Counted from the stretch's first letter, positions 6,364 to 40,632 are shown. The stretch: 64,000 bases of DNA from a virus (IMGVR_UViG_3300049595_003752:12163-76162), one strand, 5' to 3'. The notes: a model not told the origin generated them from the sequence alone. Numbers and translations: made by a program.

Positions 6364-7431
6364 TTGAAAAATCTTATTAGGAAAATATTAAAAGAATCAG
6401 AAGATGAATTTGATTGGGTCCAAGATTTGGTCCCAGCTGATTTTAACTATCCACCTGGAGCTATCTATTATAAATTTGGTGATAGTGAAGAAGTTAGAGG
6501 TTATATATTAAAAAAAGTTGTTGGTGGTTTTGTTGATTTAAAATTGGTTGGTGATAGAGTTATCTTGGAAACCGATGGTTGGTGTGATTTTGCCGATTTG
6601 TTCTATGACGATCATAGAGGTACTGATGGTTATGTTAATAGATATGTTGCAAAAAAAATGTTGTGTGATGAAGATGGTGATTGGTGGAACCCTTATGACG
6701 ATATTATAAGTAACAGACGTGAATGGAAATCAACATTGTGGGATGATAACGTTATTGGTAACGATGATGTGATAACAGAAATTTTAAATCATATTAAAAA
6801 GAATTATGTTTCAAAGCCTAACTACAACCCTAATCAGTTAGATATTTTTGATGAGTTACCCAAAAAACAAAACGTTGTTAACATTAAAGGTAGAATCTTA
6901 GATGATGATTATTTTTATGAATTAAAAAACGATTTAGATTTATTAGGTGATTTAATTAACCAAGAAGAAGAGTTTTCAAATTTAAGGTCTGAGTTGAGAT
7001 GGGCTTACGATGATGCGTATAACACTGCGGCAAGAGACCAAGTATGGAGTGCAGTTAAGGATAAGATTGAAAACGAATTTGGTGCCGGTAAATGGTTACA
7101 AAAAGACATTCAAAAACCAAGTGGTGTTTCAACTAAACATTATATGGAATTTGATATCACAGGTTTATTTTGGCCTAGTATATTCAACTTTTTTGATTAT
7201 TGTCTTAATAATCGCGTGGGTAAAGAATCTGTACAAGATTATACCTTAGAAGAATTAGAGGAAACTTTTGAAGAATGTATGTCACCCGCTAACGAATATA
7301 GTCATTTCTTAGAATTCTACAGTGTTCTGTTAGATGAAAATGGTGATGAATTTAACCCTAGATATCAGAACTATCCTGATGATGAGGATATTCAAAAATA
7401 TTTTACTGAATCTGTATCGAACAGAATCTAG
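6364..7431 (+). CDS. Acidic protein with N-terminal (M)KNLIRKILKE-SEDEFDWV signal-like motif; TTG start
   Basis: 355 aa ORF; first codon is TTG; N-terminus is shared with 10837, 21768 and 22186. Confidence 0.55.
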   Translation: MKNLIRKILKESEDEFDWVQDLVPADFNYPPGAIYYKFGDSEEVRGYILKKVVGGFVDLKLVGDRVILETDGWCDFADLFYDDHRGTDGYVNRYVAKKMLCDEDGDWWNPYDDIISNRREWKSTLWDDNVIGNDDVITEILNHIKKNYVSKPNYNPNQLDIFDELPKKQNVVNIKGRILDDDYFYELKNDLDLLGDLINQEEEFSNLRSELRWAYDDAYNTAARDQVWSAVKDKIENEFGAGKWLQKDIQKPSGVSTKHYMEFDITGLFWPSIFNFFDYCLNNRVGKESVQDYTLEELEETFEECMSPANEYSHFLEFYSVLLDENGDEFNPRYQNYPDDEDIQKYFTESVSNRI

Positions 7432-7886
7432 TTCAAATTTTCAAAAACTTGAAATAGTTTATTTCGTTGGTATAGATTAATTTCCATATTTTTAAATGCC
7501 TTCTCTATAACTTCAAAAGCTGAATCAATACCGGCAATCTCAAAGAACAACATTGCTTTCTCACCAACTTTATTAAAACCAATTTCGTTACCAACAAAAG
7601 AAGTACTGGCACCAGTACCTTTGTTTTTACCATTTGGGTTGTAGGTAGAAATTGATTTAGAACCACCTTTGGTCATACCTCTCATTACACCATACCCTGA
7701 ACGTTTTGCTGCTTTATTGATTGCTTCTGCACTTTTGGCATCCATTATCTCAACAGTGTTACCAGTCTTGTGGTAAACAACATCAACTACACCATATTTT
7801 TCTGTATCAGAACAGTTAACACATTTTTTAAAACCTAACTCAATACGTTTTTGTGGGATATCTTTATCACAATTTTTACATTTCAT
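7428..7886 (-). CDS. DksA/TraR-type C4 zinc-finger protein
   Basis: CKNCDKDIPQKRIELGFKKCVNCS: C-x2-C...R...C-x2-C arrangement. Confidence 0.45.
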   Translation of the reverse strand: MKCKNCDKDIPQKRIELGFKKCVNCSDTEKYGVVDVVYHKTGNTVEIMDAKSAEAINKAAKRSGYGVMRGMTKGGSKSISTYNPNGKNKGTGASTSFVGNEIGFNKVGEKAMLFFEIAGIDSAFEVIEKAFKNMEINLYQRNKLFQVFENLN

Positions 7887-7943
7887 AAAACAAAGATAAA
7901 AAAAATAGTTGAGAATTTGTGATAAAATTAATATATTTTAATT

Positions 7944-8132
7944 ATGGAAATATTAAATAAAAACACATTCAGTGATGAAAATGTTACCATAGAAAAGAAA
8001 AAAGGTGACACGCTGATTTATATTGGGAAAGCCTGTTATTCTCTGAATGATTTGGAAAAAGTTGTAAGCTTTGCTAAAACAAAAGATTTAAATGAGTCGT
8101 TAAACTATCGAGTTAAAAATTTTATAAAATAA
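7944..8132 (+). CDS. Small hypothetical protein
   Basis: 62 aa ORF. Confidence 0.3.
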   Translation: MEILNKNTFSDENVTIEKKKGDTLIYIGKACYSLNDLEKVVSFAKTKDLNESLNYRVKNFIK

Positions 8133-8390
8133 CTACCAAATTTGGTCTAAGAAAGACATGTTTGGGTCGTCAGATTTTAAAACATAAAAATTATCGTTTA
8201 AACCATTTATTAACTCTCTTAAAGTCATACTAGCATATTCAACACCTTCTTCAGGGTCTTCCCACTCAAGATCTAAACCACTGTCATCCATATCGATTAT
8301 GGTATATATAATACCCCTTTCATTATATTCTTGGGGATTATAAAACTCCTGCCCAACTAAGTTACTATCTGCTATAAATTGATAATCCAT
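8133..8390 (-). CDS. Small acidic hypothetical protein
   Basis: 85 aa ORF. Confidence 0.4.
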   Translation of the reverse strand: MDYQFIADSNLVGQEFYNPQEYNERGIIYTIIDMDDSGLDLEWEDPEEGVEYASMTLRELINGLNDNFYVLKSDDPNMSFLDQIW

Positions 8391-8417
8391 AACAATAAAT
8401 ATGCATATTTATAAGAT

Positions 8418-9443
8418 ATGTTATTATATTTTGAACCTGCTATAAACGATATTAAATGGTCTCGAGTAATTGAGGCTCTTAAAGTTTTACATCCTAAATT
8501 AACATGGGCTAGTAGAGTTAATCTAGATTCATTTAATCCTTTTGAAGCATTTGATCCACTTTCTCAAAGTGTAATTTCGTTACCACCAATTAATGGTCTT
8601 ACTATAGATTTTTATAATAAATTATCTTATGGTAGATTTGAAAATCCTGAGTCAATGTTAAAACTTAGAGGTTATGGTACTAAGGTTGTTGATGGTTGGG
8701 AATATCTAGGTATGAAACAAGATACTGAATCTATTTTTGATAAATTAAATGAATCTGACGAGTTTGGTTGGGCAGAAGAAATTATTAAAGATGTTCCTGA
8801 TGTAGTTGATTATCGTACTGTAAAACAAGGTGACAAAGTTGTCCCAGGAAAGGATTGGTTGTTTGGTAATCAAGCACAAGGTTCTATTTACGGTGTTGTT
8901 GATTTAGAAGAATATGACGGTGAACCACGTTTTATTGAAGATAGTACAGATGAAGAATTTTGGCAATATTGGGTTCACGTTGATTGGGTTAACAAAAACG
9001 GTAATGTACTTTTTAGAAACAATTATCGTGTTGGTCCCCTTTATCACGATTTAAAATATTATGTACCAAAACCTGTTAAGAAAAAAAAGATTAAAGAATC
9101 GGAAGATGATGAGTTTGAATGGGTTAAAGAAACTGTAAGTCAAGAATATCACAGATATGAAGATATTTTACCTTATTTGGATTTTGACGATATTATTTCT
9201 ATTACAGGTGATTTTACTGACGATTACGGAAATGTATTATTGTCGGTTGAAGATGTATCTTTTAAAGTTTACAAAAAAAACAATATAGTATATTTAAAAT
9301 GGGTTCAACCTAAAGATGAAAGACCTATTGATTGGTCTTTCATATCCAATAGTAGTGAAGAAGTACACATGGGTTCATCTACCTTTGAATGGGACAAAGA
9401 TTTAATGGTTAAAATTCTACACAAAGAAGAACACCCTTTTTAA
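8418..9443 (+). CDS. Modular protein with internal FDKLNES and KIKESEDDEFEWV junction motifs
   Basis: 341 aa; junction motifs match those at the N-termini of neighbouring genes. Confidence 0.6.
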   Translation: MLLYFEPAINDIKWSRVIEALKVLHPKLTWASRVNLDSFNPFEAFDPLSQSVISLPPINGLTIDFYNKLSYGRFENPESMLKLRGYGTKVVDGWEYLGMKQDTESIFDKLNESDEFGWAEEIIKDVPDVVDYRTVKQGDKVVPGKDWLFGNQAQGSIYGVVDLEEYDGEPRFIEDSTDEEFWQYWVHVDWVNKNGNVLFRNNYRVGPLYHDLKYYVPKPVKKKKIKESEDDEFEWVKETVSQEYHRYEDILPYLDFDDIISITGDFTDDYGNVLLSVEDVSFKVYKKNNIVYLKWVQPKDERPIDWSFISNSSEEVHMGSSTFEWDKDLMVKILHKEEHPF

Positions 9444-9559
9444 TTCCAAATTAATTTACTATCATTATTAAATGAAGAAGTTTTTAAAATTTCTTAATCC
9501 TTTGTATTGGATTAAGTTGTATATTTACACCAGAATTAATAATAGAAAGAATTTTTAAC

Positions 9560-9658
9560 ATGAAAAGAAAAGACCAAGAAGAGTTTTCTTCAAAATTAGC
9601 CTATTACGGTTTTATTGGATTGTTAGTGGTATTATTAATCATTGTTATTACAAAATAG
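9560..9658 (+). CDS. Tiny single-TM peptide (32 aa) upstream of the GH19 lysin; possible holin- or pinholin-like
   Basis: MKRKDQEEFSSKLAYYGFIGLLVVLLIIVITK. Confidence 0.3.
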   Translation: MKRKDQEEFSSKLAYYGFIGLLVVLLIIVITK

Positions 9659-9692
9659 GTTTAAGTTGTAGATATTTATAGTAAAAAACACT

Positions 9693-10307
9693 ATGAGTAT
9701 TAAAAACTTACAATCCAAAATCGGAGTCAATGCTGACGGGGCTTTTGGTCCTGGAACTTTAAAAGCGGCAATGAACTATTACAAGATGACTCCTGAAAGA
9801 GCTGCACATTTCTTTGCTCAAACCGCTCACGAAACTGGTGAATACAAATCATTTAGTGAAAATTTAAATTACTCAGCCGATGGTTTGAAAAAAACTTTTG
9901 GTAAGTATTTTCCCGATAAGTTAAATGAATCTTACGCCAAACAACCTGAAAAGATTGCTAATCGTGTCTACGGTAATCGTATGGGTAATGGTGATGAAAC
10001 TTCAGGGGAAGGGTGGAAATACCGTGGCCGTGGAGCTTTACAATTAACAGGGAAAAACAACTACCAATTATTTTCTAATTACCTTAAAAGACCTGAAATC
10101 ATGGCTAACCCTGATTTGGTTGCTACTGAATTTGCGTTTGAATCAGCTATGTTCTTTTTTGATAATAATAAACTTTGGGCTATAGCTGACAAAGGTGTTA
10201 ACGATGAAACCATATTAGCTATGACCAAAAGAATTAATGGAGGTACTTTAGGTTTAGACCACCGTAAAGCTTTAACATTAAAATATTATAGCTGGTTGAA
10301 ATCTTAA
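9693..10307 (+). CDS. Peptidoglycan hydrolase: PG-binding domain plus glycoside hydrolase family 19 (lysozyme/chitinase-like) domain
   Basis: IGVNADGAFGPGTLKAA is a PG_binding_1-like motif; FFAQTAHETG and YRGRGALQLTGKNNY are GH19 signatures. Confidence 0.75.
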   Translation: MSIKNLQSKIGVNADGAFGPGTLKAAMNYYKMTPERAAHFFAQTAHETGEYKSFSENLNYSADGLKKTFGKYFPDKLNESYAKQPEKIANRVYGNRMGNGDETSGEGWKYRGRGALQLTGKNNYQLFSNYLKRPEIMANPDLVATEFAFESAMFFFDNNKLWAIADKGVNDETILAMTKRINGGTLGLDHRKALTLKYYSWLKS

Positions 10308-10318
10308 TTTTTTAATGT

Positions 10319-10326
10319 TATATTTG
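10319..10326 (+). promoter_or_regulatory. -7 box TATATTTG
   Basis: 5 nt upstream of the ATG at 10331. Confidence 0.35.
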
Positions 10327-10330
10327 TTCT

Positions 10331-10672
10331 ATGAAAAAGTTTAATTTCATAGAACCGATTAAAATAGAAGTTAGATACCCCAACGTCAAATCTGTTTATG
10401 ATGAAGATGATTCTGATGTAGAGGCTGATTTTTTTTCTTTTACAAATGGTGTTCACGTTGATAATAAAACCGTTCAAGGGTGGGTTAATGATTGTGTCCG
10501 AAAGTTATTAGACGATCCTGAAAATCACTATTCTTATCATCATAGTGGTAATACACTTGTTATCGCAACAAGAAACTCAGAAGAAATAAATGTTTTTGTC
10601 TCTAGGTCACATATGCAGGCCACTATACCTTTTTACGAATATACCTACTATGATGAAGAAGAAACCATGTAA
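10331..10672 (+). CDS. Hypothetical protein
   Basis: 113 aa ORF. Confidence 0.5.
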   Translation: MKKFNFIEPIKIEVRYPNVKSVYDEDDSDVEADFFSFTNGVHVDNKTVQGWVNDCVRKLLDDPENHYSYHHSGNTLVIATRNSEEINVFVSRSHMQATIPFYEYTYYDEEETM

Positions 10673-10874
10673 AGAATGTCCTTGGGTTGTTAGGAATAAA
10701 CATAATAATACTATTGTAGAGTTTTCTAAAAGAATGGGTATGGGACACAATTGTCATATGACCAAAGCTGGTAAGAAAAACTTATGGAAAGTAGAAGAAA
10801 GTTGCCAATGTTTAGGTCGTGAGATATTTATTACTGATGCGAAATCTAATAAAGAAAATATTGAAAGAGTCTGA
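10647..10874 (+). CDS. Small Cys/His-rich putative zinc-binding protein (75 aa); overlaps its neighbours
   Basis: MMKKKPCKECPWVV...HNCH...CQC; alternative frame overlapping 10331..10672 and 10837..11244. Confidence 0.3.
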   Translation, partial: TMMKKKPCKECPWVVRNKHNNTIVEFSKRMGMGHNCHMTKAGKKNLWKVEESCQCLGREIFITDAKSNKENIERV

Positions 10875-11244
10875 AGAATTTGATTGGGTTCCTGAATTAA
10901 AAAAAGTTATTGTTGTGTCTAGGGGTAATTATTACCCCACAAATTTAGAGGCAATGGTGGAACTAGATGTTACTGGTGCCGAGGAATTTGCTGACAAATA
11001 CGGTTACTTTTATTGGAATACCCCCGCATACGGAGATTGGGTACGTGAGGCTGGTAGTTATGCTGACTCTGAAAGTTTTTTACGCCTTAAAATACCTAGT
11101 TTGGTTAAACCTGAAAATGGTGACATTTGTTATTTAATTGAAAAACGTACAACCCAGGGAAGTAATCAAATTTATCGGTTAATCAGAATTGAAGACAAAG
11201 GTGAATTTATTATTGGTAATCATGGATTTAAATTAATAAATTAA
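10837..11244 (+). CDS. Hypothetical protein with N-terminal MRNLIKKILKE-SEEFDWV motif
   Basis: Conserved N-terminal decapeptide family; the ORF track start at 10819 is probably too far upstream. Confidence 0.55.
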   Translation: MRNLIKKILKESEEFDWVPELKKVIVVSRGNYYPTNLEAMVELDVTGAEEFADKYGYFYWNTPAYGDWVREAGSYADSESFLRLKIPSLVKPENGDICYLIEKRTTQGSNQIYRLIRIEDKGEFIIGNHGFKLIN

Positions 11245-11871: not shown

Positions 11872-12720
11872 TTAATATTTAAAATTTAGATAACTAGATT
11901 CTAGTTTTTCTTTTAACATCAGTTGGTAAGCTCGTGCCAGTCTTGTCATACCGATACCACCACCAAACCTTGGGAAGAATTCAAAAGATAAAAACTCTTC
12001 TAACTCTTTTTCAACTCTTTCTTTACCAAATAACTCAAACAACTTAGCACAGTATTTACCATCTTCTATGGTATAAAAATTATGTTTCATTTCTTCAACA
12101 TCACAACTTCTTTCAGCTGAACCAATAGTTTCTTGACCATAAAGTATAACATCAACCTTATTAAAAATACTATTTTCTTTGTGTTTCATATTCCAAAAAG
12201 GGTTTGTTCTTAAAGGAAAATTTTGTAATGAAACAACAGGACCTTTTTCTTGCCACATTCTTGTTTCATGTTCGTTCTCAAGTATTTCTACGTTACCGTA
12301 TTCTTGACAAACATCATCGTAATTCACCTCAATCGGCTTTTCAAAACCTAAGTGGTATAACAACTCAGATTCTAATTTTAACATTTTATCCATACCACCC
12401 TTAGATTCAAACTCGAACATTGGGAATATCATTTCATGTCTTCCTTCTATTGGGTTTTTTTCTTGTCTATAAGAAGTGGAAATACAATAAACACCTTTCC
12501 ATTCAGGGTTTTTAAGTAGTTCATACTCTAACCACATCTGACCTGTTTGTGGTAAAGGCCAAACTTGACCGTTGTAATTAAAAGTAGCGATTGAATGTGG
12601 GTTTTCACATGCCGCTAAGATTGATAACCTACTTTGTGTAGGTACTTCTTTGAAACCTTTCTCTTGAAAGAAGTTTCGCATTCTTTGTACTAGTTCATTG
12701 TAACTTTTTGTGTCTTTCAT
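11872..12720 (-). CDS. Class II aminoacyl-tRNA-synthetase-like catalytic-domain protein (AsnA/EpmA-like amino-acid ligase)
   Basis: Motif-2-like YRQEKNPIEGRHEMIFPMFEFE and motif-3-like FGGGIGMTRLA (compare AsnA GGGIGQSRL); no anticodon-binding domain; 282 aa. Confidence 0.6.
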   Translation of the reverse strand: MKDTKSYNELVQRMRNFFQEKGFKEVPTQSRLSILAACENPHSIATFNYNGQVWPLPQTGQMWLEYELLKNPEWKGVYCISTSYRQEKNPIEGRHEMIFPMFEFESKGGMDKMLKLESELLYHLGFEKPIEVNYDDVCQEYGNVEILENEHETRMWQEKGPVVSLQNFPLRTNPFWNMKHKENSIFNKVDVILYGQETIGSAERSCDVEEMKHNFYTIEDGKYCAKLFELFGKERVEKELEEFLSFEFFPRFGGGIGMTRLARAYQLMLKEKLESSYLNFKY

Positions 12721-13672: not shown

Positions 13673-14692
13673 GTGTTAAGAATATTAAACAAATATCACA
13701 ATGAAGGTTTGCTTTATAAACAAGTTCACCCTACTTTGCCTTTAACTATATGGAATTATAGTGAAGATGTGCAATACGGCAACAAGTGGGATGAAATGAC
13801 TTTGATGGCACGTGGTTTGGTGACTGATGAATTCGGTACCATTGTCGCAAGACCGTTCAAGAAGTTCTTTAACATGGAAGAAGGTAAACACACCCCAACT
13901 GTCGACTTTGAAGTATTTGAGAAGGTTGACGGCTCTTTGGGTATTGTCTTCAATTACAAAGGTGAGTGGATGATAGCGACCAGAGGTTCTTTTACTTCTG
14001 ACCAAGCAATTAAAGGTAAAGAAATGTTGGATAAATTGAAGATGGGCAAAGTACCTTACAATTTAACTTATCTTTTTGAGATTATTTATCCTGAGAACCG
14101 GATTGTGGTGAGCTACGGTGATGTAGAAAAGTTGGTGTTGTTGGGAGCCATAAATACTGAAACTGGTACTGAAGTTTCTCGTCACACTTTAGAGTATTTT
14201 GCTAGTGAAATAGGTTCTGACATCTCTAAGTCTTATGATGGTATAAAAGATTATTCTACTTTAAAAGGTATGATTAAAGACGATGAAGAAGGTTTTATCA
14301 TCCGTTTCTCTAACGGCGATAGAATGAAAATCAAAGGTGAAGAATATCTACGTCTACACAAAATCATGACTAATGTATCTACCACCGCGGTATGGGAAGT
14401 GTTAAGTAATGGTGGTAATTTTGAGGAATTACTTAAAGATGTTCCTGATGAATTTTACCAAAAGATACAAGAAGTTGTTAGAGATTTGGTTGTCAGACAT
14501 GACAATATCCAAAAAGACTACATGAGTTATTTTTTAGATATCACCAATAAAGTTTTAAGTACTGATAGAAAATCTTTCGCTGAAGAGGCTAAAAGATATA
14601 ACCACCCATCTTTGTTATTTGGTATCTTAGACGGTAAGGATATCTCACCAATTATTTGGAAATTAATTAAACCTGAATTTAAAAAGTTATGA
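13673..14692 (+). CDS. rnlA: RNA ligase, T4 Rnl1 family
   Basis: Nucleotidyltransferase motif I EKVDGSLG (T4 Rnl1 KEDGSL); motifs IV/V EGFIIRFSNGDRMKIKGEEY (T4 Rnl1 [20 protein letters not shown]); GTG start. Confidence 0.75.
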   Translation: MLRILNKYHNEGLLYKQVHPTLPLTIWNYSEDVQYGNKWDEMTLMARGLVTDEFGTIVARPFKKFFNMEEGKHTPTVDFEVFEKVDGSLGIVFNYKGEWMIATRGSFTSDQAIKGKEMLDKLKMGKVPYNLTYLFEIIYPENRIVVSYGDVEKLVLLGAINTETGTEVSRHTLEYFASEIGSDISKSYDGIKDYSTLKGMIKDDEEGFIIRFSNGDRMKIKGEEYLRLHKIMTNVSTTAVWEVLSNGGNFEELLKDVPDEFYQKIQEVVRDLVVRHDNIQKDYMSYFLDITNKVLSTDRKSFAEEAKRYNHPSLLFGILDGKDISPIIWKLIKPEFKKL

Positions 14693-15108
14693 CAGAAAAA
14701 GTATTATATATTGTAAGAGGTTTACCAGGAAGTGGTAAGAGTACATTCGCTAAAAAATTGGTTGGTCATGATTTCTTGGTGTGTGAGGCTGACAAGTATT
14801 TCACAGATGCCGACGGTAATTACAATTTCGACGTTACCAAAATCAAAGACGCTCATAAATGGTGTCAAGATAGAGTTGAAACTTACATGAAAGATAGTAT
14901 GGTTAACGACCAATTCTACCGTGAAATTGCTGTATCAAATACATTCACCCAAGAATGGGAGATGAAACCATACTATGTCTTAGCAGAAAAATATGGGTAT
15001 AAAATTTTCTGTATAATTGTTGAAAACCGTCATGGTGGTACAAACTTACATGATGTACCTGAAGACAAACTTAAAATAATGCGTAATCGTTTTGAATTTA
15101 AGCTCTGA
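14689..15108 (+). CDS. P-loop polynucleotide 5-kinase (Pnkp kinase-domain homolog)
   Basis: LYIVRGLPGSGKSTFAKKL resembles the T4 Pnk N-terminus ILTIGCPGSGKSTWAREF. Confidence 0.65.
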   Translation: MTEKVLYIVRGLPGSGKSTFAKKLVGHDFLVCEADKYFTDADGNYNFDVTKIKDAHKWCQDRVETYMKDSMVNDQFYREIAVSNTFTQEWEMKPYYVLAEKYGYKIFCIIVENRHGGTNLHDVPEDKLKIMRNRFEFKL

Positions 15109-15147: not shown

Positions 15148-15711
15148 ATGGCAAACGAATTAAAAAATAGAATATTTAAAGAAATGAAAAACGTTAACGA
15201 AAATATTAAACCTCAAATGGGACCTAAATTATATAGGTTAAGTGAAAAAACAATTAATATATTAACCAACAGGTTAGCTGACGAATATATTGCACATTAT
15301 TTTTATAGAAATGCTGCTAATTGGTGTAATGATATGAACTATAAAAAAGCCGCAGCTTTTTTTACAACTGAGGCTAACACAGAGTTACAACACGCTGAAG
15401 GTCTTCAAAAATATATGACCGACTTTAACATTATTCCTGAAATACCGTCTGTAGGGACTTCGGATGAATTTAGTAGTTTAGTTGATATTATTTATGGGGC
15501 ATACGAAATGGAGTTAGGTCTTATGAAATCTTACAATAGAGATTCACAACTTGTATTTGGTGACGATATCACAACATTTGATTTTTTAACAGAATATAGA
15601 GAAGGTCAAAAACAATCTGTTATTGAATACAATGATTTAATTAACGCTTTAGACTTGATTGACAAAACTGATAAATTCCAAATTTTATATTTTGAACAAA
15701 CTTATTTTTAG
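15148..15711 (+). CDS. Ferritin-like diiron protein
   Basis: LADEYIAHYFY...FFTTEANTELQHAEGL ferritin-like helix pair. Confidence 0.45.
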   Translation: MANELKNRIFKEMKNVNENIKPQMGPKLYRLSEKTINILTNRLADEYIAHYFYRNAANWCNDMNYKKAAAFFTTEANTELQHAEGLQKYMTDFNIIPEIPSVGTSDEFSSLVDIIYGAYEMELGLMKSYNRDSQLVFGDDITTFDFLTEYREGQKQSVIEYNDLINALDLIDKTDKFQILYFEQTYF

Positions 15712-17664: not shown

Positions 17665-17829
17665 ATGAAAATGGTGAAAGCACCAAAAGAACATGTCGAC
17701 AGACTAAGAACTTGGTTACAATTTACTGACGAGCTATCACAAATAGAACCTGAAAACTCTCGTGAATGGGAAAAAGATATAAACGAAAACCCTGAAAGTG
17801 TGAAATTGGAATTATCTAGATATTTATAA
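17665..17829 (+). CDS. Small hypothetical protein (54 aa)
   Basis: ATG..TAA filling an intergenic gap. Confidence 0.3.
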   Translation: MKMVKAPKEHVDRLRTWLQFTDELSQIEPENSREWEKDINENPESVKLELSRYL

Positions 17830-17835
17830 AGTAAT

Positions 17836-19191
17836 ATGATTAGAGATATTATAAAACAAACATTACTAAGTGAAGCGTTAAAACCCTCACAATTTAGAAA
17901 CTATGTTAAACATTTTGATAGAGAAAAATATACCAAAATGTTTAAATCCCTAGGTGATAATTTTGAACACGATAGAAACTATTACCGAATTTATATCCCT
18001 TTGGGATCCCAAGAAAAAAAAGAATTTATTTCTGATACACAAAAGGAAATAATCAATTTTCTAAATCAAAACGGATATGAAGTTTTAGATTATGTTAAGG
18101 GTATCACTAAATATGGTGACGCCAAAAATACAACCACGATTGGTAAGGTTTTAACAAGATTAAAAGATGATGATTTAATGAAAAAATTTGTTTCCGATGA
18201 ATCAAGAAAAGCTTTAACATCTGATGTTGAAAATTTAATGGTTGTTATTTCACGTCACCCTTATGATATAGTTGGTTCGGATACTGATAGAAATTGGACT
18301 AATTGCATGACTCTCGGACACCCAGAGTCACAAAGAACAAAAGAATTGGTTCAAAAATATAATGAACTTAAAAAAGTGGGTGGTGACAAAGAAAAACTAA
18401 AGGATTTAAAAGATAAAATTGAATCTAGAAAAGAAACTGGAGAAAATACAAAATACCTACTTAATGATATTAAAGAGGGTTCTTTAATATCTTATCTAAT
18501 TAAAAAAGACGATAAAAATATTAATAACCCTTTGGCTGTTTTAAATATTAAACCATATGTTAATGAAAAAAATAACGCTGATATTATTTTATTGTCAGAT
18601 AATAAAATGTATGGAAACGCTAGACCAGAATTTAAAAAAACCGTGGATAATGTTTTAGAGGTTTTAAATGGGGATAAACACGGTAGTTATTGCATAAATA
18701 AATATATATATAAAGATGATGGTGATAGGGAGGTGATTTACTATTCTACCGAAGATTTATATAATCAGTTTAAAGAAATTATTAACTCTATTACAAATGT
18801 GGAAAAGACTAATTGTTATAGTAAAGATGATTTATACAAATATAAATCGAACTATGATTCAGAATTTTATCAATCAAAATTAGAAGAAAAATGTTTTTTA
18901 CTTAAAAATAATAAAAACCAAAAAATAGCTATTCTAAGAGTAAATTTTCTTCCCAACATTTATGGTGCTGAAGAAAAAGAAAATGAGATTACTTGGTATA
19001 AATACCCCAAGGGTTTGGTTAAAAGTGATTTTGGTGGTCTACGAACTAATTACGTCTATGAAAAAGTATATTCTATGTTGAATAACGGAAATTTATCTGA
19101 CTTAATTAACCCTAAAATTAAAAGTGTAATTGATTCTAATGGGGGTAAAAATTTAGATATAACATTTAATCAGTTTCGGTACGATAGATAA
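17836..19191 (+). CDS. Hypothetical protein; possibly a distant family A member
   Basis: N-terminus MIRDIIKQTLLSE; MVVISRHPYDIVGSDTDRNWTNCMT weakly resembles the family A Cys motif. Confidence 0.55.
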   Translation: MIRDIIKQTLLSEALKPSQFRNYVKHFDREKYTKMFKSLGDNFEHDRNYYRIYIPLGSQEKKEFISDTQKEIINFLNQNGYEVLDYVKGITKYGDAKNTTTIGKVLTRLKDDDLMKKFVSDESRKALTSDVENLMVVISRHPYDIVGSDTDRNWTNCMTLGHPESQRTKELVQKYNELKKVGGDKEKLKDLKDKIESRKETGENTKYLLNDIKEGSLISYLIKKDDKNINNPLAVLNIKPYVNEKNNADIILLSDNKMYGNARPEFKKTVDNVLEVLNGDKHGSYCINKYIYKDDGDREVIYYSTEDLYNQFKEIINSITNVEKTNCYSKDDLYKYKSNYDSEFYQSKLEEKCFLLKNNKNQKIAILRVNFLPNIYGAEEKENEITWYKYPKGLVKSDFGGLRTNYVYEKVYSMLNNGNLSDLINPKIKSVIDSNGGKNLDITFNQFRYDR

Positions 19192-20697: not shown

Positions 20698-20721
20698 CAA
20701 AGTAGTGAATATTTATCTAAT

Positions 20722-21768
20722 ATGAAAAATCTCATCAAAAAAATTATATTAGAAAGTTTACTGTTTGAAGATATAAAACATGTTAAACAACTATTCACTA
20801 ATTGGGCTAACAAAAAATCTGGAAACCCAGAACTAGCATTGTCCTTGATGGACGATTTTTTAAAACACCAAAAAAAGTTAAAACGTGACTTTACATCTTT
20901 TTCTTCTGCAGAAGAGATGAAACAAGCATTGGACAAAGTACGTCAATCAGAGGTAGAAAAACAAAAATTATCTGACGCTGTTAAAATTTTTGAAAACAAC
21001 GAAGTTCTTGTTGTGGCAGCAAATACCCATGAAGCTTCTTGTCGTTATGCAGCAGGTACAAAATGGTGTACAGGAGCGGCTGATACGGATGAATATTGGA
21101 AAAGACATAATAGAACGGGAACCGAGTTTATTTGGATTTTTAAAACTTTAACACGGGATGACCCAAACTATAAATTTTCTTTCCATATAAAATGGAATAG
21201 ATTACCTGATTGGTGTAATGCAGTAAATAGGTGCTCAACAAAAACACCTTTAATTTTAACTGCACAATCTAGTGCACAATTTCCACAATATTTTGATTAT
21301 AAAGAGGTATTAAAAAAATGTTTTGAGTATCATGAAGAAAGACGTAAAAATTTAGGTATAGGATCTAAAAAGCCTAGTGGTGGGTTGTTAGAAAAGTTTA
21401 TAGAACGTGTTAGGCGAATTATAGTAGAAGAAATAAATTGGCAATTTGATGACGCAGTTAATAATTCTTTTGAAGACTATTATGCTGGTGAAGAATATGA
21501 AGAAGAATATATGGATTTCGTTTATGGTAAAAAAGAAGAAATTATAGAAGCTACCAAAAATCTTATTGAGGATGATATTTCTACCATAACAGAAGAAGAT
21601 TTGACAAATGATTATGAAGACTTTTTATTAGATAACCCAAACTTTACAGAAGAAGATTTTATTACATATAAGGTCGAAGATTATTTAACTTATTCATTAA
21701 CTGAAATCTTGATAGAAGAAATCGGTTTAGTTGCGGACGAATTTTTAAGGGAAAAAGATTTAAATTAA
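20722..21768 (+). CDS. Divergent paralog family A protein
   Basis: N-terminus MKNLIKKIILES; NNEVLVVAANTHEASCRYAAGTKWCTGA. Confidence 0.6.
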   Translation: MKNLIKKIILESLLFEDIKHVKQLFTNWANKKSGNPELALSLMDDFLKHQKKLKRDFTSFSSAEEMKQALDKVRQSEVEKQKLSDAVKIFENNEVLVVAANTHEASCRYAAGTKWCTGAADTDEYWKRHNRTGTEFIWIFKTLTRDDPNYKFSFHIKWNRLPDWCNAVNRCSTKTPLILTAQSSAQFPQYFDYKEVLKKCFEYHEERRKNLGIGSKKPSGGLLEKFIERVRRIIVEEINWQFDDAVNNSFEDYYAGEEYEEEYMDFVYGKKEEIIEATKNLIEDDISTITEEDLTNDYEDFLLDNPNFTEEDFITYKVEDYLTYSLTEILIEEIGLVADEFLREKDLN

Positions 21769-22181
21769 TGAGAAACCTAATTAGACAAATATTAAGAGAG
21801 ACTTACTCACCAGCGGGAGAAGAACACATCCCAAGTAAATTTATTTATCATAAATCCCCACCAAATGTTAGGAATAACATTCTTAAATCAGGTTTATTAG
21901 TTTCAGTTGGTGGTTGTTATAAAACTTATTCTGAGAACTTTACTGAAGAAGAGTGTGTTCCAGCTATTTTCGCAACTGATTCTGAATATAAAGATGATTG
22001 GTTTGATTCCACTTGGGATGATGATGTTTGGAAAATAAATACAAAAATAGCGGATGTTAAATGGTTTAAAGATAAGCATTTTGATGGCAGAGGTTATAAA
22101 AATAACCATATTGTTACATTTGAGGATATTAAACCCGAATCATTAAAATTAATCTATAAAGGAACTGGAAAAGATAATTAG
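21768..22181 (+). CDS. Hypothetical protein with MRNLIRQILRE N-terminus
   Basis: 137 aa; conserved decapeptide. Confidence 0.5.
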   Translation: MRNLIRQILRETYSPAGEEHIPSKFIYHKSPPNVRNNILKSGLLVSVGGCYKTYSENFTEEECVPAIFATDSEYKDDWFDSTWDDDVWKINTKIADVKWFKDKHFDGRGYKNNHIVTFEDIKPESLKLIYKGTGKDN

Positions 22182-22185: not shown

Positions 22186-22461
22186 ATGAAAAATCTAATT
22201 AGACAAATATTAAGGGAAGAACAAGAAGTAAAAAAAGGTGACAAACTTATGTCCACCAAAACCATTAAGAATAGTCGGACTGCAGGCAACGTTTATACCG
22301 TTGTAGGTGTACAAAATAACCCACATGGTGAAGATGAAATTGTATTTGTTAACGACAGAGGTCTATTATTACATTTTCCAATTAGTGAATATAAAGATTA
22401 TTTTGTCCCATTTGACTATGATAGTACATCAAATATTTTTAACCAATTAGACCCTGAATAA
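22186..22461 (+). CDS. Hypothetical protein with MKNLIRQILRE N-terminus and IFNQLDPE C-terminus
   Basis: Carries both the N-terminal and the C-terminal junction motifs. Confidence 0.5.
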   Translation: MKNLIRQILREEQEVKKGDKLMSTKTIKNSRTAGNVYTVVGVQNNPHGEDEIVFVNDRGLLLHFPISEYKDYFVPFDYDSTSNIFNQLDPE

Positions 22462-34918: not shown

Positions 34919-34946
34919 ATATTTATCTATATAAAAGAAACTTAAT

Positions 34947-35273
34947 ATGGAAAAAAATATAAAAATAGTTAGGCTAACTGAAAACGATTTGGAGCGTATG
35001 GTTAAAAAAATTATAAAAGAAGATTCAGTTGAGCTTACCACTGTTAGGCTAATTGATGATACTTATGATTTACTAACAACTTTGGGTTATGAATATGTTG
35101 AAGATTTATATATTCAGGATTTGTATGAGGCCGCAGAAGTATTGGAGGATGAATTATATGATGGTGATCATGGTCCTAATATGAATAAAGAAATTGAAGA
35201 TTTGTTAACAAACATTTATGAAATAATTGGTTATCCTGATGAGGCCGAAGATTGGGATGAATCTGAATATTAA
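34947..35273 (+). CDS. Acidic hypothetical protein
   Basis: 108 aa ORF. Confidence 0.45.
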   Translation: MEKNIKIVRLTENDLERMVKKIIKEDSVELTTVRLIDDTYDLLTTLGYEYVEDLYIQDLYEAAEVLEDELYDGDHGPNMNKEIEDLLTNIYEIIGYPDEAEDWDESEY

Positions 35274-35760: not shown

Positions 35761-35867
35761 TTTTATCTAATATGTGGAAATGGTTTTTGATGTCCGGAAT
35801 CCGTCTTTTATCCCCCTACCCCCTTTTTTTATTTGGTCATTTAATTTATTCTTCTTATATTTGTCTT

Positions 35868-36104: not shown

Positions 36105-36132
36105 AATAAAATTATTATATTTGTATTAATAA

Positions 36133-36381: not shown

Positions 36382-36593
36382 TGGAAATAGTTAAGGTTAT
36401 AATTAGAAAGGCAACATTACCAACTTATTGGTATGCCGATAAAATAGGACAAGTCTTTGAATGTTATCAACGTGGTTCAAATCAATACCAAGTTGTGGAA
36501 CATAAAGGTTCGGTTTGTTTTATTGTTGCTGACGATTGTATTCCTACTGATTGTATTGGTCGTAAACCAATTAAAAGATTAAAATTAATATAA
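36381..36593 (+). CDS. Small hypothetical protein, paralog of 2981..3187
   Basis: YWYADKIGQVFECY. Confidence 0.45.
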   Translation: MEIVKVIIRKATLPTYWYADKIGQVFECYQRGSNQYQVVEHKGSVCFIVADDCIPTDCIGRKPIKRLKLI

Positions 36594-36778
36594 TGGAAAG
36601 ACAAGAAGGATATTATTGGGTTAAATATAAAACAGGACATCAAATTGCTTATTGGGGTGTATGGATATCAAGTAAATTTGCTTGGTTTTGTATAGGAAGT
36701 GAAGAACAATATGAAGATTCGGATTTTGAACACATTAATGAAATAAGAATTAAACAACCTGGGGAGTTACCTGATTAA
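36593..36778 (+). CDS. Small hypothetical protein
   Basis: 61 aa ORF. Confidence 0.4.
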   Translation: MERQEGYYWVKYKTGHQIAYWGVWISSKFAWFCIGSEEQYEDSDFEHINEIRIKQPGELPD

Positions 36779-36781
36779 ACT

Positions 36782-37021
36782 ATGATTGAAGTAGGTCGAT
36801 ATTCTTTTTACGGTGTTACGCATATTAACGTCATGGATATTAAATATGAAGATGGTGATGTCCACTATTTTGTTCAACCCGATGTAAACCCTGAAGGTTG
36901 GTGGGTTAATTCTAATAATATGAAACGTATCTGTACTGATTTTAATTTAACGTATGTCGGTCCTTATGTCCCCATCCAACCAAAACCTTATCTAAAGGAA
37001 TTTCGTTTTCCTGTCGACTAA
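36782..37021 (+). CDS. Small hypothetical protein
   Basis: 79 aa ORF. Confidence 0.4.
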   Translation: MIEVGRYSFYGVTHINVMDIKYEDGDVHYFVQPDVNPEGWWVNSNNMKRICTDFNLTYVGPYVPIQPKPYLKEFRFPVD

Positions 37022-37031
37022 TTTTATTTTC

Positions 37032-39050
37032 TTGTTGGATATTTATTATTTAGTGAGAGAACAATACAATATAGAAGACTTGGATTTTTTCTATAACGCT
37101 AGAACATTATTTTATGAAATTGGTTATGATGATAAACCTGTAAAAATTCATGATGCTGTTAGTGATGATAATGGTTATTTAATACATGTTGGTATTCGTG
37201 ATGGTGAATATAATATTTGTTATTATATTTTCGTTGGTGAGGATAGTACTGAAGTTGAGGAATGTATTGCAGGTCAAAAGTTATTGCTGAATGCTTTAAA
37301 TAACGGGAATATTGAACCAATTATGTCAAGTCTTGATGTAGAAGATGTTTTTAATTCATTAAATGAATCGACCGACAATTACCAACCAAAATTATATCTA
37401 AGATTTGAACCACCGATTCATAACGATACTCTTGGCATTAGACAATTGGATAAAATTTTAATTTTGATTGAAAATGAATACCCAACAGTTAGTTGGTTTC
37501 AAGGTCAAGAACCTTCCCAATACAATCCTTTTATCCAAGAAGGTGAAGATATCCCCGAACAAGTTAAATCTATCACCATTGGTTATTGGCCTGATAAACC
37601 AAATCTTTTAACTTATGGTCAGTGGGATGATAATGAAGAAGGTTATACAAATACAATTGACGGTTGGTTGTGGCTTGAAGAACGTGATGTTGATTATGAT
37701 AAAACTTCCGATTTATTTAATTCATTGAATGAATCCGATGAATCAAGAATTCCTAGTGCCGGTGATTATCTTATTTTTGTTGGCAGTGAATATGGTAAAT
37801 GGTTCCACCCACTTTTTACAGTTGGTAAAGTTTATAAAGTGTTTAACACCTCAGAAGGCATTATAGAAGTTCAAAATGATAGGGGTGGTCTATCAAATTT
37901 TAGTGTTGATTTACTTGACAATCTTAATTGGGAAACTTGGTTTCGATTAGCCAAATTTGATTATGACAAAACAACAGAAATCTTCAATCAATTAAACGAA
38001 TCCACGTACCAACCAAAATTAAATTTAAGATTTGAGGATGGTATTTCTGATGCTAATGAACTTGATAAGGTATTAAAAGTTTTAAGTCTTGTTTATCCTG
38101 GATTAAAATGGCTAGGAGGCGACCCAATTACGTCACACAATGTTATTCGTAATGTTGAAGATGATGAAAGAGAAGATTTTATATACGACCCAATTTATTA
38201 TTTAACAATTGGTTATTTTCCTCACGCTCCAGATAAACTTACTTATACAAATGGACCTGATGATGATATTGGTTATGCGGATGAGGAACAACATGGTTAT
38301 AATTGGGTTGACGGTTGGGAATGGGTACAAAAAAATGAGGTTGACTATGATGAAACATCAGATATCTTTAATCAACTAAATGAATCGTATGATTTTCTTA
38401 AAACAACAAATTTAATTGGTTATAGTTTTAAAACTGTAGCTACTACTGACTCTAGGTATTGGATTATTCGTCATGTTTTTAATGATAAAGGTGGTTACGT
38501 AACTGTTACTATGGAATACTCACCACTTTTTATTACAGACGTAGGAATAGAAGGTTTTCCAACAACAAAAACAATAAAAAAAGATAAGGTTATTGATTTT
38601 ATTAGTTCTGGTAAATGGGAAATTGTTAGTGTACCTAATCAGATTGATTCTTTTGATGTTTTTGATAAACTAAATGAATCTACTCGAAAAGAAGATGGAT
38701 TTACTTTAATTTTTGACCCACCAATTGAGGACCCAAAAACAATGGAAATGGTTTTGATGAAATTACAAATTATTCATCCTGATTGGACTTGGGTTAATGA
38801 TAAAAGATTGATTGATTACAATATTTTTGATTCGGGTGAAATAGGGTTTTATAAAGGACAATATGATACTGTAGTTGGTGCCTTAACCGTTAACCATCCT
38901 GAATGGGAAAACTCAAAAGGGGTTAGTTGGAGTTCTACCGATTATGACGAACCTTATATCAGAAATATGCCAAAATATAATGGTTGGGAGTATATAGAAG
39001 AATTAGGTGACATACCAACTACTGAAGACATTTTTAATCAATTAGGTTAA
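37032..39050 (+). CDS. Large modular polyprotein-like protein: at least 5 modules separated by (I/V)FNxLNES junctions, with 3 homologous ~130-aa repeats
   Basis: Junctions FNSLNES (x2), FNQLNES (x2), FDKLNES; C-terminus ...DIFNQLG; repeats YQPKLxLRFE...TIGYWPDKP/TIGYFPHAP...DGWxW...VDYD.TSD. Confidence 0.65.
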   Translation: MLDIYYLVREQYNIEDLDFFYNARTLFYEIGYDDKPVKIHDAVSDDNGYLIHVGIRDGEYNICYYIFVGEDSTEVEECIAGQKLLLNALNNGNIEPIMSSLDVEDVFNSLNESTDNYQPKLYLRFEPPIHNDTLGIRQLDKILILIENEYPTVSWFQGQEPSQYNPFIQEGEDIPEQVKSITIGYWPDKPNLLTYGQWDDNEEGYTNTIDGWLWLEERDVDYDKTSDLFNSLNESDESRIPSAGDYLIFVGSEYGKWFHPLFTVGKVYKVFNTSEGIIEVQNDRGGLSNFSVDLLDNLNWETWFRLAKFDYDKTTEIFNQLNESTYQPKLNLRFEDGISDANELDKVLKVLSLVYPGLKWLGGDPITSHNVIRNVEDDEREDFIYDPIYYLTIGYFPHAPDKLTYTNGPDDDIGYADEEQHGYNWVDGWEWVQKNEVDYDETSDIFNQLNESYDFLKTTNLIGYSFKTVATTDSRYWIIRHVFNDKGGYVTVTMEYSPLFITDVGIEGFPTTKTIKKDKVIDFISSGKWEIVSVPNQIDSFDVFDKLNESTRKEDGFTLIFDPPIEDPKTMEMVLMKLQIIHPDWTWVNDKRLIDYNIFDSGEIGFYKGQYDTVVGALTVNHPEWENSKGVSWSSTDYDEPYIRNMPKYNGWEYIEELGDIPTTEDIFNQLG

Positions 39051-39078
39051 AAAACTTTTCAATTTAAAGTTAATTTAT

Positions 39079-39086
39079 TATCTTTG
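39079..39086 (+). promoter_or_regulatory. -7 box TATCTTTG
   Basis: Upstream of the ATG at 39104. Confidence 0.35.
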
Positions 39087-39103
39087 TTTAAATAATTAAA
39101 TCT

Positions 39104-39352
39104 ATGAAATTCGGAACATTTTTATCTTTATTAGGTGGTACCACTAATCTTATCCTCACTATTGTTAATTTACTTGAAGGACAAAATCAAATAGCTTCAG
39201 TATGGGGTACAGCATCTATTTGGGCCTTTTCTACTTTTTTTACTGAATTAAACCTTAGTAAAAAAGAAAAACAAATTCAAAACATTAAAGACGCTATTGT
39301 TTCTTCTGAAAACGAAGTTGAGGCGATTAACAAAATTAACGACATACTTTAA
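39104..39352 (+). CDS. Small membrane protein
   Basis: MKFGTFLSLLGGTTNLILTIVNLL. Confidence 0.4.
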   Translation: MKFGTFLSLLGGTTNLILTIVNLLEGQNQIASVWGTASIWAFSTFFTELNLSKKEKQIQNIKDAIVSSENEVEAINKINDIL

Positions 39353-39354
39353 AT

Positions 39355-39576
39355 ATGATTCGTACTGTCACTGTAAACTACAAAGGTCTTGAACTAGAAT
39401 GTAAGGGTTATCATACACCTTATAAAAATAATGGGCGGGATAATCCACCTGATAATGAATGTTTTGAAATTGATACCGTTATTTGGAACGGTGTGGATAT
39501 TTTAGAAGTACTTGATTCTTTAAATGTTGATTGGTGTGAGTTAGAATCGGTATGTCTCGAGTTTTTAAACGACTAA
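39355..39576 (+). CDS. Small hypothetical protein
   Basis: 73 aa ORF. Confidence 0.4.
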   Translation: MIRTVTVNYKGLELECKGYHTPYKNNGRDNPPDNECFEIDTVIWNGVDILEVLDSLNVDWCELESVCLEFLND

Positions 39577-39594
39577 TAGAGATATTTATTATCG

Positions 39595-40632
39595 ATGAGT
39601 AATATAAATTCTTTCTACGATAAAAAAATTATTTGGTTGGCTGACTACAATATTTGTGGTGATAATTTTAACTATTTTAAAAATCAACTAATAACCATAC
39701 TAAGATCTTTAAAAGAATTAGATAACCATGTTATAGAAACACTTAATAATATTGGAATTGATTTAAAAAAATATAATGGTTGTTTATTGTATGTAAGATT
39801 CATCAACAGAAGTACTAATATTAAGTATTATTCTGTTGATGATTATGAACAAGGGGATGATGCACATTTAGATGCTTTGGAGGCTTATCAAGATTTTGTT
39901 GATCGTGGATATTCACCTTTAATATGGTCCGATTTAATAGGTAATACTACAGATACTTACGATATTTTTGATAAAATAAGTGAGTCAAATGAGTACTCAA
40001 ATGTTTCACATTTAATTAATAAAAAAATTTGGTTTGACTATCCAACCGAAAGGGAAGACATTGAAAAAGTAAATCAATTTTTTATCGATAACGGTTTCCG
40101 TGGTTTAAAGAGTGATAATATAGACGAGTTTGAAGATTTTATTTATGATAATGATGCAGCTTATTTTAAATTAACACAACATACATCACCTTTACATAGT
40201 GTTGAAGAAAGAAGACCTTATATTGATTATTTTTCTTTGGATTGGACAAACCCTGAAAGATTAAAAAATGACCCAAGCTTTATTTATTATCAAGATATTT
40301 TAAATATGACTGATACCACTTTAGACATTCTTTCCAATTTGAATGAGTCGGTAGAAGAAATGCAACCAAAAATCGGTGACTACCTTTATTGTCATAAAGA
40401 AGTTGTTATGGATGATGGTAGCAAAGAAACAACAGTAGGTAAATTCTACCAAATTAAAAATGTAATGCGTGATAGGTTGGAGATATTAAATGACCATAGA
40501 GGTGACCACGTATTTGGTACTAACCCTAAAACATATTGGTATTATGGTATTTGGTTCCATTTAATACCAAAAGAACATAAAAAAGATTTTGATTCTTTTA
40601 ATCCTGAAGACATCTTCAATCAGTTAGATTAA
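39595..40632 (+). CDS. Modular protein with FDKISES / LSNLNES junctions and DIFNQLD C-terminus
   Basis: Same junction grammar as 37032..39050. Confidence 0.6.
   Translation: MSNINSFYDKKIIWLADYNICGDNFNYFKNQLITILRSLKELDNHVIETLNNIGIDLKKYNGCLLYVRFINRSTNIKYYSVDDYEQGDDAHLDALEAYQDFVDRGYSPLIWSDLIGNTTDTYDIFDKISESNEYSNVSHLINKKIWFDYPTEREDIEKVNQFFIDNGFRGLKSDNIDEFEDFIYDNDAAYFKLTQHTSPLHSVEERRPYIDYFSLDWTNPERLKNDPSFIYYQDILNMTDTTLDILSNLNESVEEMQPKIGDYLYCHKEVVMDDGSKETTVGKFYQIKNVMRDRLEILNDHRGDHVFGTNPKTYWYYGIWFHLIPKEHKKDFDSFNPEDIFNQLD

Follow-up and report, generated by a model that had tools for sequence, protein, structure and literature searches.

We describe here a short basic peptide, the tag, that stands at the N terminus of otherwise unrelated proteins in a 64,000-nucleotide stretch of viral DNA (IMGVR_UViG_3300049595_003752:12163-76162; hereafter the window), together with a second sequence, the junction, that separates the modules of multi-module proteins in the same stretch. 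In a clade of related phages the tag recurs as an N-terminal extension that is portable and conserved at the level of the peptide, and tag and junction hold equivalent positions at module boundaries. We interpret the tag, its looser and longer variants and the F-x-x-L-N-E-S junctions as targeting and processing signals of T4-type head assembly that have been greatly expanded, a reading which we hold with slightly better than even confidence. A preliminary description of the window had pointed to both elements and had proposed that they bound head-packaged or ejected proteins matured by a prohead protease.

In its strict form, M(K/R)NLI(R/K)(K/Q)I(L/I)(K/R/L)E, the tag stands at the starts of five genes of five unrelated families, all on the + strand: MKNLIRKILKE, from a TTG start, in gene 6364..7431 (tag 6364..6396); MRNLIKKILKE in 10837..11244 (10837..10869); MKNLIKKIILE in 20722..21768 (20722..20754); MRNLIRQILRE in 21768..22181 (21768..21800), which directly follows the previous gene and has no promoter-like motif of its own; and MKNLIRQILRE in 22186..22461 (22186..22218), a stand-alone B-type module. 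A looser tag, MKNIFKYVILE, opens 41058..42446 (41058..41090, +), and loose tags open 17836..19191 (MIRDIIKQTLLSE, 17836..17874, +), 50356..52032 (MNIILENIRKVLLE, 50356..50397, +) and 4806..6359 (MELYKIFESTVLTE, 4806..4847, +). All the strict and looser starts previously listed are confirmed, and 4806 is added here. The tags end in ILKE, ILRE or IILE, that is, in (L/I)-x-E. A six-frame regular-expression scan found the N-terminal motif only at starts of open reading frames (ORFs) and only on the + strand; the relaxed motif N[LI][ILF][RK].[IV][LI].E had six matches as against 0.055 in 200 mononucleotide shuffles, and the DNA-level tag pattern two as against 0.00 expected.

The earlier claim that at least six unrelated genes carry the peptide needs qualification: outside the tag, none of the five strict carriers is related to another, but 20722, 41058 and 50356, and also 4806, are paralogues. 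Likewise, SEDEFDWV, said to follow the tag directly in two genes, is exact at 6364, whereas 10837 reads SEEFDWV. More generally, about one third of the carriers, when read by eye, have after the tag or a junction the acidic-aromatic motif (S)E(D/E)(D/E)F(D/E/G)W(V/I/A) (in the window at 6397-6420, 10870-10890, 8757-8774 and 9102-9125). Its tryptophan is invariant in the 6364 family, yet the motif is unstructured in the AlphaFold model, and it would form the new N terminus if cleavage occurred. The tag is present even in orthologues of the 6364 protein as distant as 38% identity, and E11 and W18 do not vary among them. Searches of Pfam and PHROGs were uninformative on the window proteins that are tagged or modular.

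A second, longer tag, MEKNIKIVRLTENDLERMVKKIIKE, begins gene 34947..35273 (34947..35021, +). This 25-residue element, M.K.(V/I)RL(T/N)ENDIE.LVKKII.E, starts at least 10 other, otherwise unrelated proteins in related contigs, among them those at L039 8549-8935, L079 6537-7001 and L141 10810-11199 (L-numbers denote viral contig loci fetched for comparison, P-numbers database proteins). In both L039 and L141 it is carried by the gene immediately after that of the gp21 protease.

The tag is widespread outside the window. When its degenerate back-translated DNA was scanned against the IMG/VR viral contigs, at least 117 loci were found; among the matches listed, 140 of 140 begin an ORF, and they represent at least 107 distinct tagged proteins in at least 61 clusters unrelated by BLAST. 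Pfam recognises among these proteins Fe/Mn superoxide dismutase (SOD), PolyA_pol (CCA-type nucleotidyltransferase), GNAT, AAA_33/zeta-type kinases, Peptidase_C39/C70-like (papain-like) proteases and HAD-like proteins, and in the recognised enzymes the tag is an add-on ahead of the usual domain start. A profile built from the five window N termini and searched against 1.84 billion protein representatives returned 109 cluster representatives at E<=0.001, with the tag lying within the first 16 residues in 86 of the 108 examined.

The tag codons differ synonymously between copies, lysine and arginine are interchanged, and most positions match the codon background of the genes themselves, so that selection acts mainly at the peptide level. 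Positions 8 and 9 are biased: across loci L007-L123, ATA encodes Ile8 in 102 of 114 tags where 43 would be expected, and TTA encodes Leu9 in 93 of 113 where 64 would be expected. Upstream of the ATG, the DNA of different tag copies could not be aligned beyond an 8-nucleotide (nt) motif; for this reason a DNA-level repeat or shared 5' region was ruled out as the source of the N-terminal identity. A purely RNA-level signal was also ruled out, by the synonymous variation, the bias at codons 8 and 9 aside, and so was a secretion signal, because the tag has no hydrophobic core. Full-text literature searches for the motif strings retrieved no paper containing them, and the system is undocumented in the literature searched.

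In three window genes, all on the + strand, the modules are set apart by the junction, (I/V/L)F(N/D)xLNES. The strict expression [ILV][FL][ND][QSK][LI][NS]ES gave seven matches, all in frame, as against 0.005 in mononucleotide shuffles: five fell in 37032..39050, and 8418..9443 and 39595..40632 had one each. Gene 37032..39050 encodes a six-module acidic protein (isoelectric point, pI, 4.2), a putative polyprotein with junctions at 37347-37370, 37713-37736, 37980-38003, 38364-38387 and 38658-38681 and a C-terminal IFNQLG at 39030-39047. Its true start is likely to be the GTG at 37053 (MREQYN...) instead of the listed TTG, as an equivalent start is present in most homologues. The three-module protein of 8418..9443 has an A-type module, the junction IFDKLNES (8733-8756) followed by DEFGWA, and a MIB_HERC2-like domain, after which a tag-like junction, KIKES (9087-9101), is followed by EDDEFEWV; the internal string noted earlier was thus located at 9087-9125. 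The third protein, 39595..40632, also of three modules, has the degenerate junctions IFDKISES (39964-39987) and ILSNLNES (40327-40350), the latter missed by the strict expression, and ends with IFNQLD (40612-40629). The junction counts previously given therefore agree with ours for the first two genes, and for the third both junctions are present, although only as degenerate copies. It had also been stated that three genes terminate exactly in DIFNQL(D/G), which is true of two only (those ending at 39050 and 40632); 22186..22461 ends in NIFNQLDPE, its IFNQLD (22435..22452, +) being followed by PE and the stop codon.

Homologues of the 37032 protein fall in 57 clusters, down to about 30% identity, and contain one to seven modules. 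Throughout, [ILVM]F[NDS]xLNES is nearly invariant while the module bodies diverge, and many of these proteins begin exactly at a module start, 'MYQPKL...', and finish at '...IFNQL[DGN]'. In the IMG/VR scan the strict junction was found at three loci only, all of one protein family, which indicates that the junction, unlike the tag, is family-specific.

Several proteins place tag and junction at the same point of their architecture. In four longer variants of the 6364 orthologues, an extra N-terminal module bears the tag, and the old tag position reads '...DTHSLFES' directly followed by 'EDDFGWV'. As a protein by itself (22186) the B-type module is tagged, and inside the 37032 polyprotein it is preceded by a junction, residues 18-74 of the former matching residues 263-321 of the latter by BLAST. 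The protein P0245 has a complete tag at an internal position. Finally, in the DHH phosphoesterase family (L/I)-x-E-S always comes directly before the domain start GIRD; the window member, 55023..56453, is without the strict tag (MSTLLLENKYLITES directly before GIRD), and its orthologues in L030, L070 and L091 are tagged. The exchange of tag and junction in the longer 6364 orthologues and in the B-type module is in keeping with the earlier proposal that the modules are interchangeable cassettes bounded by L-x-E.

According to the AlphaFold models, tag and junctions are predicted to be exposed. In the 37032 polyprotein the A-type modules have predicted local distance difference test (pLDDT) scores of 80-90, and each junction lies in a segment below 50 with a short isolated helix. 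The model of the 6364 protein has a mean pLDDT of 84.7, but residues 1-24, comprising the tag and SEDEFDWV, score below 50, and the helix formed by residues 2-11 is not packed against the body. Foldseek searches of the PDB found no fold match for either model. It could be argued that the junctions are structural elements, for instance C-terminal capping helices, of multi-domain proteins that are never cleaved, and that they recur through tandem duplication only. The modules are clearly duplicated, and the short helices modelled at the junctions would suit such a role. However, the junction is far better conserved than the modules that it separates, also among homologues with no more than 30% identity overall, it follows two unrelated types of module, it is predicted to be unpacked against the domains, and it is interchangeable with an N-terminal tag. 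We consider this explanation very unlikely.

The (L/I)-x-E ending of the tag and the L-N-E of the junction correspond to the cleavage specificity of the T4 prohead protease gp21, as the preliminary description had suggested, and comparisons with T4 agree on this point. All the indirect tests that we made came out in favour of that earlier interpretation, which we regard as supported in part. In an alignment of gp23 N termini, the glutamate at which the T4 capsid protein is cleaved, E65 (FLTE/A; a slash marks the cleavage site), falls in an invariant column, read as SVLINE/T in the tag clade and as TLISE in L141, and thus the (L/I)-x-E specificity has probably been kept in the clade. T4 gp24 starts with MAKINELLRE/S, and the internal proteins IPII and IPIII with MKTYQEFIAE/A. 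The T4 gp23 propeptide has 65 residues and the other propeptides 10-20 (PMC5694885); in the T4 capsid targeting sequence (CTS), residues 4 and 7 are responsible for targeting and residues 8 and 10 direct processing, which is blocked when aspartate replaces the glutamate (PMC9026906). The tag, with hydrophobic residues at 4/5 and 8 followed by L9 and E11, has the same layout shifted by one. The crude pattern [LIVMF][LI].E, sought within residues 1-16, was calibrated on 37 genes of a T4 structural region and matched five, gp68, gp21, gp22, gp24 and alt.-1, all of them known prohead-core proteins or gp21 substrates (alt.-1 is derived from Alt). The same pattern matched 21 of 119 window genes, compared with 4.8% of interior segments (p=2e-7).

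The phages that carry the tag are T4-like myoviruses. A phmmer search of all fetched loci with T4 structural proteins showed that tag-bearing contigs encode T4-type gp13 (neck), gp18 (sheath), gp19 (tube), gp20 (portal), gp21 and gp23. The gp21 match has E=1e-22 in L039, L057 and L080, and a prohead protease of the Peptidase S77 family occurs in the tag-bearing relatives L039, L057, L080, L136 and L141. The best 120 relatives of the L039 protease all have the PF03420 (Peptidase S77) domain and lie on contigs of up to 318 kb. Many genes are common to the window and the T4-like tag-bearing contigs, and for window gene 42453..43313, as an example, the identity is 54-61% to genes of loci in which gp18 or gp19 is present as well. 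In L141, a 260-kb contig, a head module of 20 kb contains four tagged genes around the protease and gp23: they comprise a gene for a PolyA_pol protein of 769 residues, the long-tag gene next to the protease on its downstream side, and genes for a protein of 157 residues and for a member of the window paralogue family of 281 residues. Tagged loci are not clearly enriched for structural genes, which are found in about 35 of the 117 loci listed, and we did not use this as evidence.

The head modules have some further features of note. The interval from portal to protease contains a glutamine-synthetase-like gene and, on the opposite strand, the tagged PolyA_pol/CCA-type nucleotidyltransferase gene (L039 3850-7708; L136 2421-6321; L141 6029-9950). 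Upstream of the L141 portal, a gene of 1052 residues cut at the locus edge (1-1652) has a LAGLIDADG_3 match and is possibly an intein-containing large terminase. Small ORFs of 136-145 residues that adjoin a tagged gene in L013, L023, L115, L045 and L010 resemble an internal part of gp23 ('RATWSPELAQDLQAYHGIDAEAELT') and could be capsid-protein fragments or decoration-like derivatives. The paralogue family represented in the window (PHROGs 17056 and 28193, function unknown) is characterized by the motifs 'NNKYLDWM' and 'SC.YG..TKWC' and has at least six copies in this phage. Its members are found at 4806..6359, 20722..21768, 41058..42446 and 50356..52032 in the window, and at L124 15182-16138 (-) and 19149-20465, L141 17772-18617 and L079 5727-6467 (-), with one tagged copy directly downstream of gp23 in L141.

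Near and protein-level searches among cultured phages found no close relative of the window, and none of the cultured phages in the collection has the strict tag. The closest cultured relative is the Flavobacterium phage immuto, with 42% identity in the capsid protein and 45% in the protease, and this suggests that the tag-bearing phages have a Flavobacteriia host. Such a host also fits the upstream regions inspected, in which no Shine-Dalgarno-like sequence was seen when they were read by eye. Capsid protein and protease of the tag clade are nearer to T4 and immuto than to the phiKZ group. Immuto (MW353175; L132-L134) has its own recurrent N-terminal helices, all of which end in (L/I)-x-E: MENFDLKKFLVENKLT in four genes, MKKQILSEQF.RMQ.LAGIITES in two and MKKSQLRQIIKE-like sequences in three or four. 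Its gene 199, a small gene between portal and protease, bears one such motif. The 22186 protein is found with identical sequence in 120 metagenome-assembly blocks, many of them from JGI metagenome samples.

The 8-nt motif upstream of the start codons, ATATTTAT, is present in 32 copies in the window as against 18.4 +/- 3.9 in shuffles, and lies 4-23 nt upstream of about 22 start codons. It precedes every tagged transcription unit, all three modular genes and both endolysin candidates (475..939, -; 9693..10307). It is found before tagged genes at 4775-4782, 10824-10831, 17820-17827, 20709-20716, 41042-41049 and 50325-50332 (all +), and at 34919 before the long-tag gene 34947..35273. Its distance to the ATG is 5 nt at 8405-8412 (gene 8418), at 10824-10831 (gene 10837) and at 39582-39589 (gene 39595), and the copy at 37039-37046 is 6 nt upstream of the GTG at 37053. 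Other sites are 955-962 (-), 1314, 3214, 8395 (-), 9672, 15128, 40659, 47299, 47556, 48292, 50331 (-), 54998 and 63225. The tagged genes 6364, 21768 and 22186 are without a copy of their own, and the motif is almost missing from the small-ORF stretch at 22.5-34.9 kb. In related contigs ATATTTAT is found no more than 60 nt before the start in 16 of 21 T4-like structural genes, including homologues of gp13, gp18, gp19 and gp20, in 43% of tagged genes and in 22% of other genes (Fisher p=2e-6). The distance to the ATG is mostly 33-45 nt in the structural genes and mostly 5-7 nt in the tagged genes, with 39 of the 51 occurrences upstream of tagged genes in the latter range. Where the motif is 4-8 nt from the start codon, the mRNA would have little or no leader. 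Judging from its distribution, ATATTTAT is a probable late-promoter element.

The fixed spacing of the motif and its enrichment upstream of tagged genes raise the question of whether the tag is just the coding part of a mobile cassette, promoter plus start, spread by recombination, with the peptide as a passenger or an expression aid. The strong bias towards ATA and TTA at codons 8 and 9 and the presence of the tag on unrelated genes could be accounted for in this way. On the other hand, the remaining positions vary synonymously and exchange lysine for arginine, the bases from motif to ATG are not conserved, the tag is retained in orthologues to 38% identity and in the three genes 6364, 21768 and 22186 that do not have their own motif, and it occurs internally as a junction. 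A cassette may explain how the tag has spread, not why it has been retained, and as a full explanation we think it quite unlikely.

If the tag and junctions are indeed signals of head assembly, a plausible sequence of events can be outlined. The tagged genes would be expressed late, from ATATTTAT-type promoters common with the structural genes. The tag would form a basic amphipathic helix, with M1, L4, I5, I8 and L9 on one face and lysine or arginine at 2, 6, 7 and 10, that docks on the acidic prohead scaffolding core. The tag has a pI of 10.3 and the scaffold proteins adjoining gp23 in L039, L079 and L141 are extremely acidic, so that the scaffold offers a simple electrostatic docking partner. 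A gp21-type serine protease (Peptidase S77) would then cut after the invariant glutamate of (I/L)-(K/R/N)-E and remove the tag, and the same protease would cut the multi-module proteins at each L-N-E/S junction, releasing modules of 90-125 residues. The mature proteins would remain in the head and enter the host with the DNA.

A number of observations weigh against this interpretation. First, docking, cleavage, packaging and ejection, as well as the presence of the protease in this genome, are what we infer. The protease, which the preliminary description had proposed to look for elsewhere in the genome, is found as S77 enzymes in the tag-bearing relatives, but phmmer and PHROGs searches (the latter on flank genes) detected neither an S77 protease nor another T4-like structural gene in the window and its 10-kb flanks, so that its link to this genome is by relatedness only; the protease hits also included none on the contigs of 232, 299 and 312 kb that have polyprotein homologues. 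Second, L-x-E has a low information content, and amphipathic helices are frequent at N termini. No residue-level similarity to the T4 CTS MKTYQEFIAE was seen beyond the pattern itself (M-K, hydrophobic residues at 4 and 7/8, terminal E), and the strict tag is absent from immuto. Third, the crude pattern implies tagging of about 15 window genes above chance and hence of dozens per genome, far above the handful of T4, and the numerous tagged proteins include many enzymes of an ordinary kind (SOD, CCA/polyA polymerase, HAD-like, kinases, DHH), which are not classical capsid cargo. Most tagged and modular proteins are, moreover, acidic (pI 4.2-6.1), unlike the T4 internal proteins IPII and IPIII, which are basic. 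Finally, the bias at codons 8 and 9 suggests that some constraint acts on the nucleotide sequence or that the copies of a cassette have a recent common ancestor.

The kind of enzymes that are tagged is also the basis for a different view, in which the helix is an uncleaved docking peptide for another partner, such as a ClpC-like unfoldase or other chaperone, a replication or metabolic assembly or the membrane, and gathers enzymes in the infected cell. SOD, PolyA_pol, GNAT, kinases and DHH are cytoplasmic-type enzymes, and many tagged genes lie among nucleotide- and RNA-repair genes and not among structural genes. A basic amphipathic helix, which the models predict to be free, is compatible with any docking role, and the window itself encodes a ClpC-like AAA+ protein with a Clp_N domain (57151..59730). 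This view leaves unexplained the invariant glutamate with a leucine or isoleucine two residues earlier, the equivalence of the tag with internal junctions at exact module boundaries, and the match to the predicted cleavage site of the capsid protein and the T4 calibration. It also leaves unexplained the motif common with late structural genes and the clustering of tags in the L141 head module. For these reasons we regard it as unlikely. Each of the alternatives covers a part of the data, and none explains an invariant L/I-x-E at interchangeable module boundaries.

The window as a whole is densely coded, with 30% G+C and tightly packed genes mostly on the + strand; no tRNA genes were found. The accessory genes include a class II tRNA-synthetase-like protein (tRNA-synt_2), a T4 RnlA-type RNA ligase with an AAA_33 kinase after it, a ferritin and a thymidylate synthase (taken together, 11872..12720 (-), 13673..15108, 15148..15711 and 60434..62447). 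The ORF directly before the thymidylate synthase presumably encodes a GIY-YIG homing endonuclease, to judge from the look of its sequence. The ClpC/ClpB-like protein at 57151..59730 is encoded on the - strand and comprises, besides Clp_N, two AAA modules and a ClpB_D2-small domain; it contains the sequence 'GVGFG', which is similar to a ClpP-docking loop, and homologues with 58-66% identity are found in L108, L025 and L117. Just upstream of the left end of the window (L124 11454-13503), a histidine kinase with a PAS domain (HATPase_c) and a receiver protein of the response-regulator type form a two-component-like pair, which is unusual for a phage.

Taking the head-assembly interpretation further, one can imagine a clade of uncultured T4-like phages, probably growing on Flavobacteriia, in which one basic 11-residue label and L-N-E/S polyproteins serve to load dozens of fast-evolving enzymes and modules that are injected with the DNA. 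We propose this only tentatively, as a possibility that falls well short of even. If it were true, the cargo would include superoxide dismutase, tRNA CCA/polyA polymerase, acetyltransferases, kinases, papain-like proteases and small modules, an 'effector delivery' repertoire an order of magnitude above that of the T4 internal proteins. Should the tag be a capsid-targeting signal, capsid cargo could be read directly from metagenomes for an abundant clade of uncultured freshwater phages, and the T4 internal-protein strategy would prove to extend to dozens of enzymes and to polyprotein precursors; the signal would also point to injected proteins that may counter host defences, and would provide a short natural tag for loading foreign proteins into Bacteroidota phages.

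Peptides with comparable properties are known from protein shells of bacteria. The encapsulation peptides of microcompartments and the cargo-loading peptides of encapsulins are short amphipathic helices, terminal or interdomain, with flexible linkers to the rest of the protein; they direct unrelated enzymes into a protein shell and are not removed by a protease. Some microcompartment peptides read much like the tag (for example ...LIRTILSE...), which we take as a lead only. The Pfam matches in the window and flanks include no microcompartment shell-protein families, and no encapsulin shell genes were seen there. Among T4-type phages, mobile regulatory cassettes consisting of a promoter and a stem-loop reportedly mediate gene shuffling, as Arbiol and colleagues are said to have described in 2010. 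Here too a short conserved sequence stands at the gene start, ATATTTAT at a fixed distance plus the tag codons, and it could promote modular exchange. Those cassettes, however, are non-coding early promoters with stem-loops, whereas the element described here is translated and selected as a peptide, and its upstream conservation is limited to the 8-nt motif. As in viral polyproteins, the junctions are more conserved than the domains, and natural gene starts and stops coincide with them. To our knowledge, it has not been established for any phage that a prohead protease processes accessory proteins at five to seven sites per chain, and such processing is putative here.

The closest parallels are offered by phage heads. 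In the giant phages phiKZ, 201phi2-1 and SPN3US, which have proteases of the gp175/gp245 type, many head proteins are also processed at short x-x-E motifs. These phages, which have large genomes, possess paralogues with conserved N termini and package enzymes for ejection into the host (PMC5694885). Their motifs, however, are of the form (S/A/G)-x-E and their propeptides mostly exceed 100 residues (PMC5694885). The T4 CTS differs from the tag in being acidic to neutral and 10 residues long (MKTYQEFIAE), whereas MKNLIRKILKE is basic and has 11 residues. The T4 sequence is confined to a handful of proteins, while the tag, known here from sequence, is carried by at least 61 families including housekeeping-type enzymes and also has its counterpart in internal junctions. 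Nevertheless, both are N-terminal peptides of about 10 residues carried by unrelated proteins, in T4 by IPI-III and Alt, from which gp21 removes them. Both start with M-K, have hydrophobic residues at 4 and 7/8 and end in (I/L)-x-E, and the tag is found in a T4-like clade that has a Peptidase S77 protease and a conserved glutamate at the cleavage site of its capsid protein.

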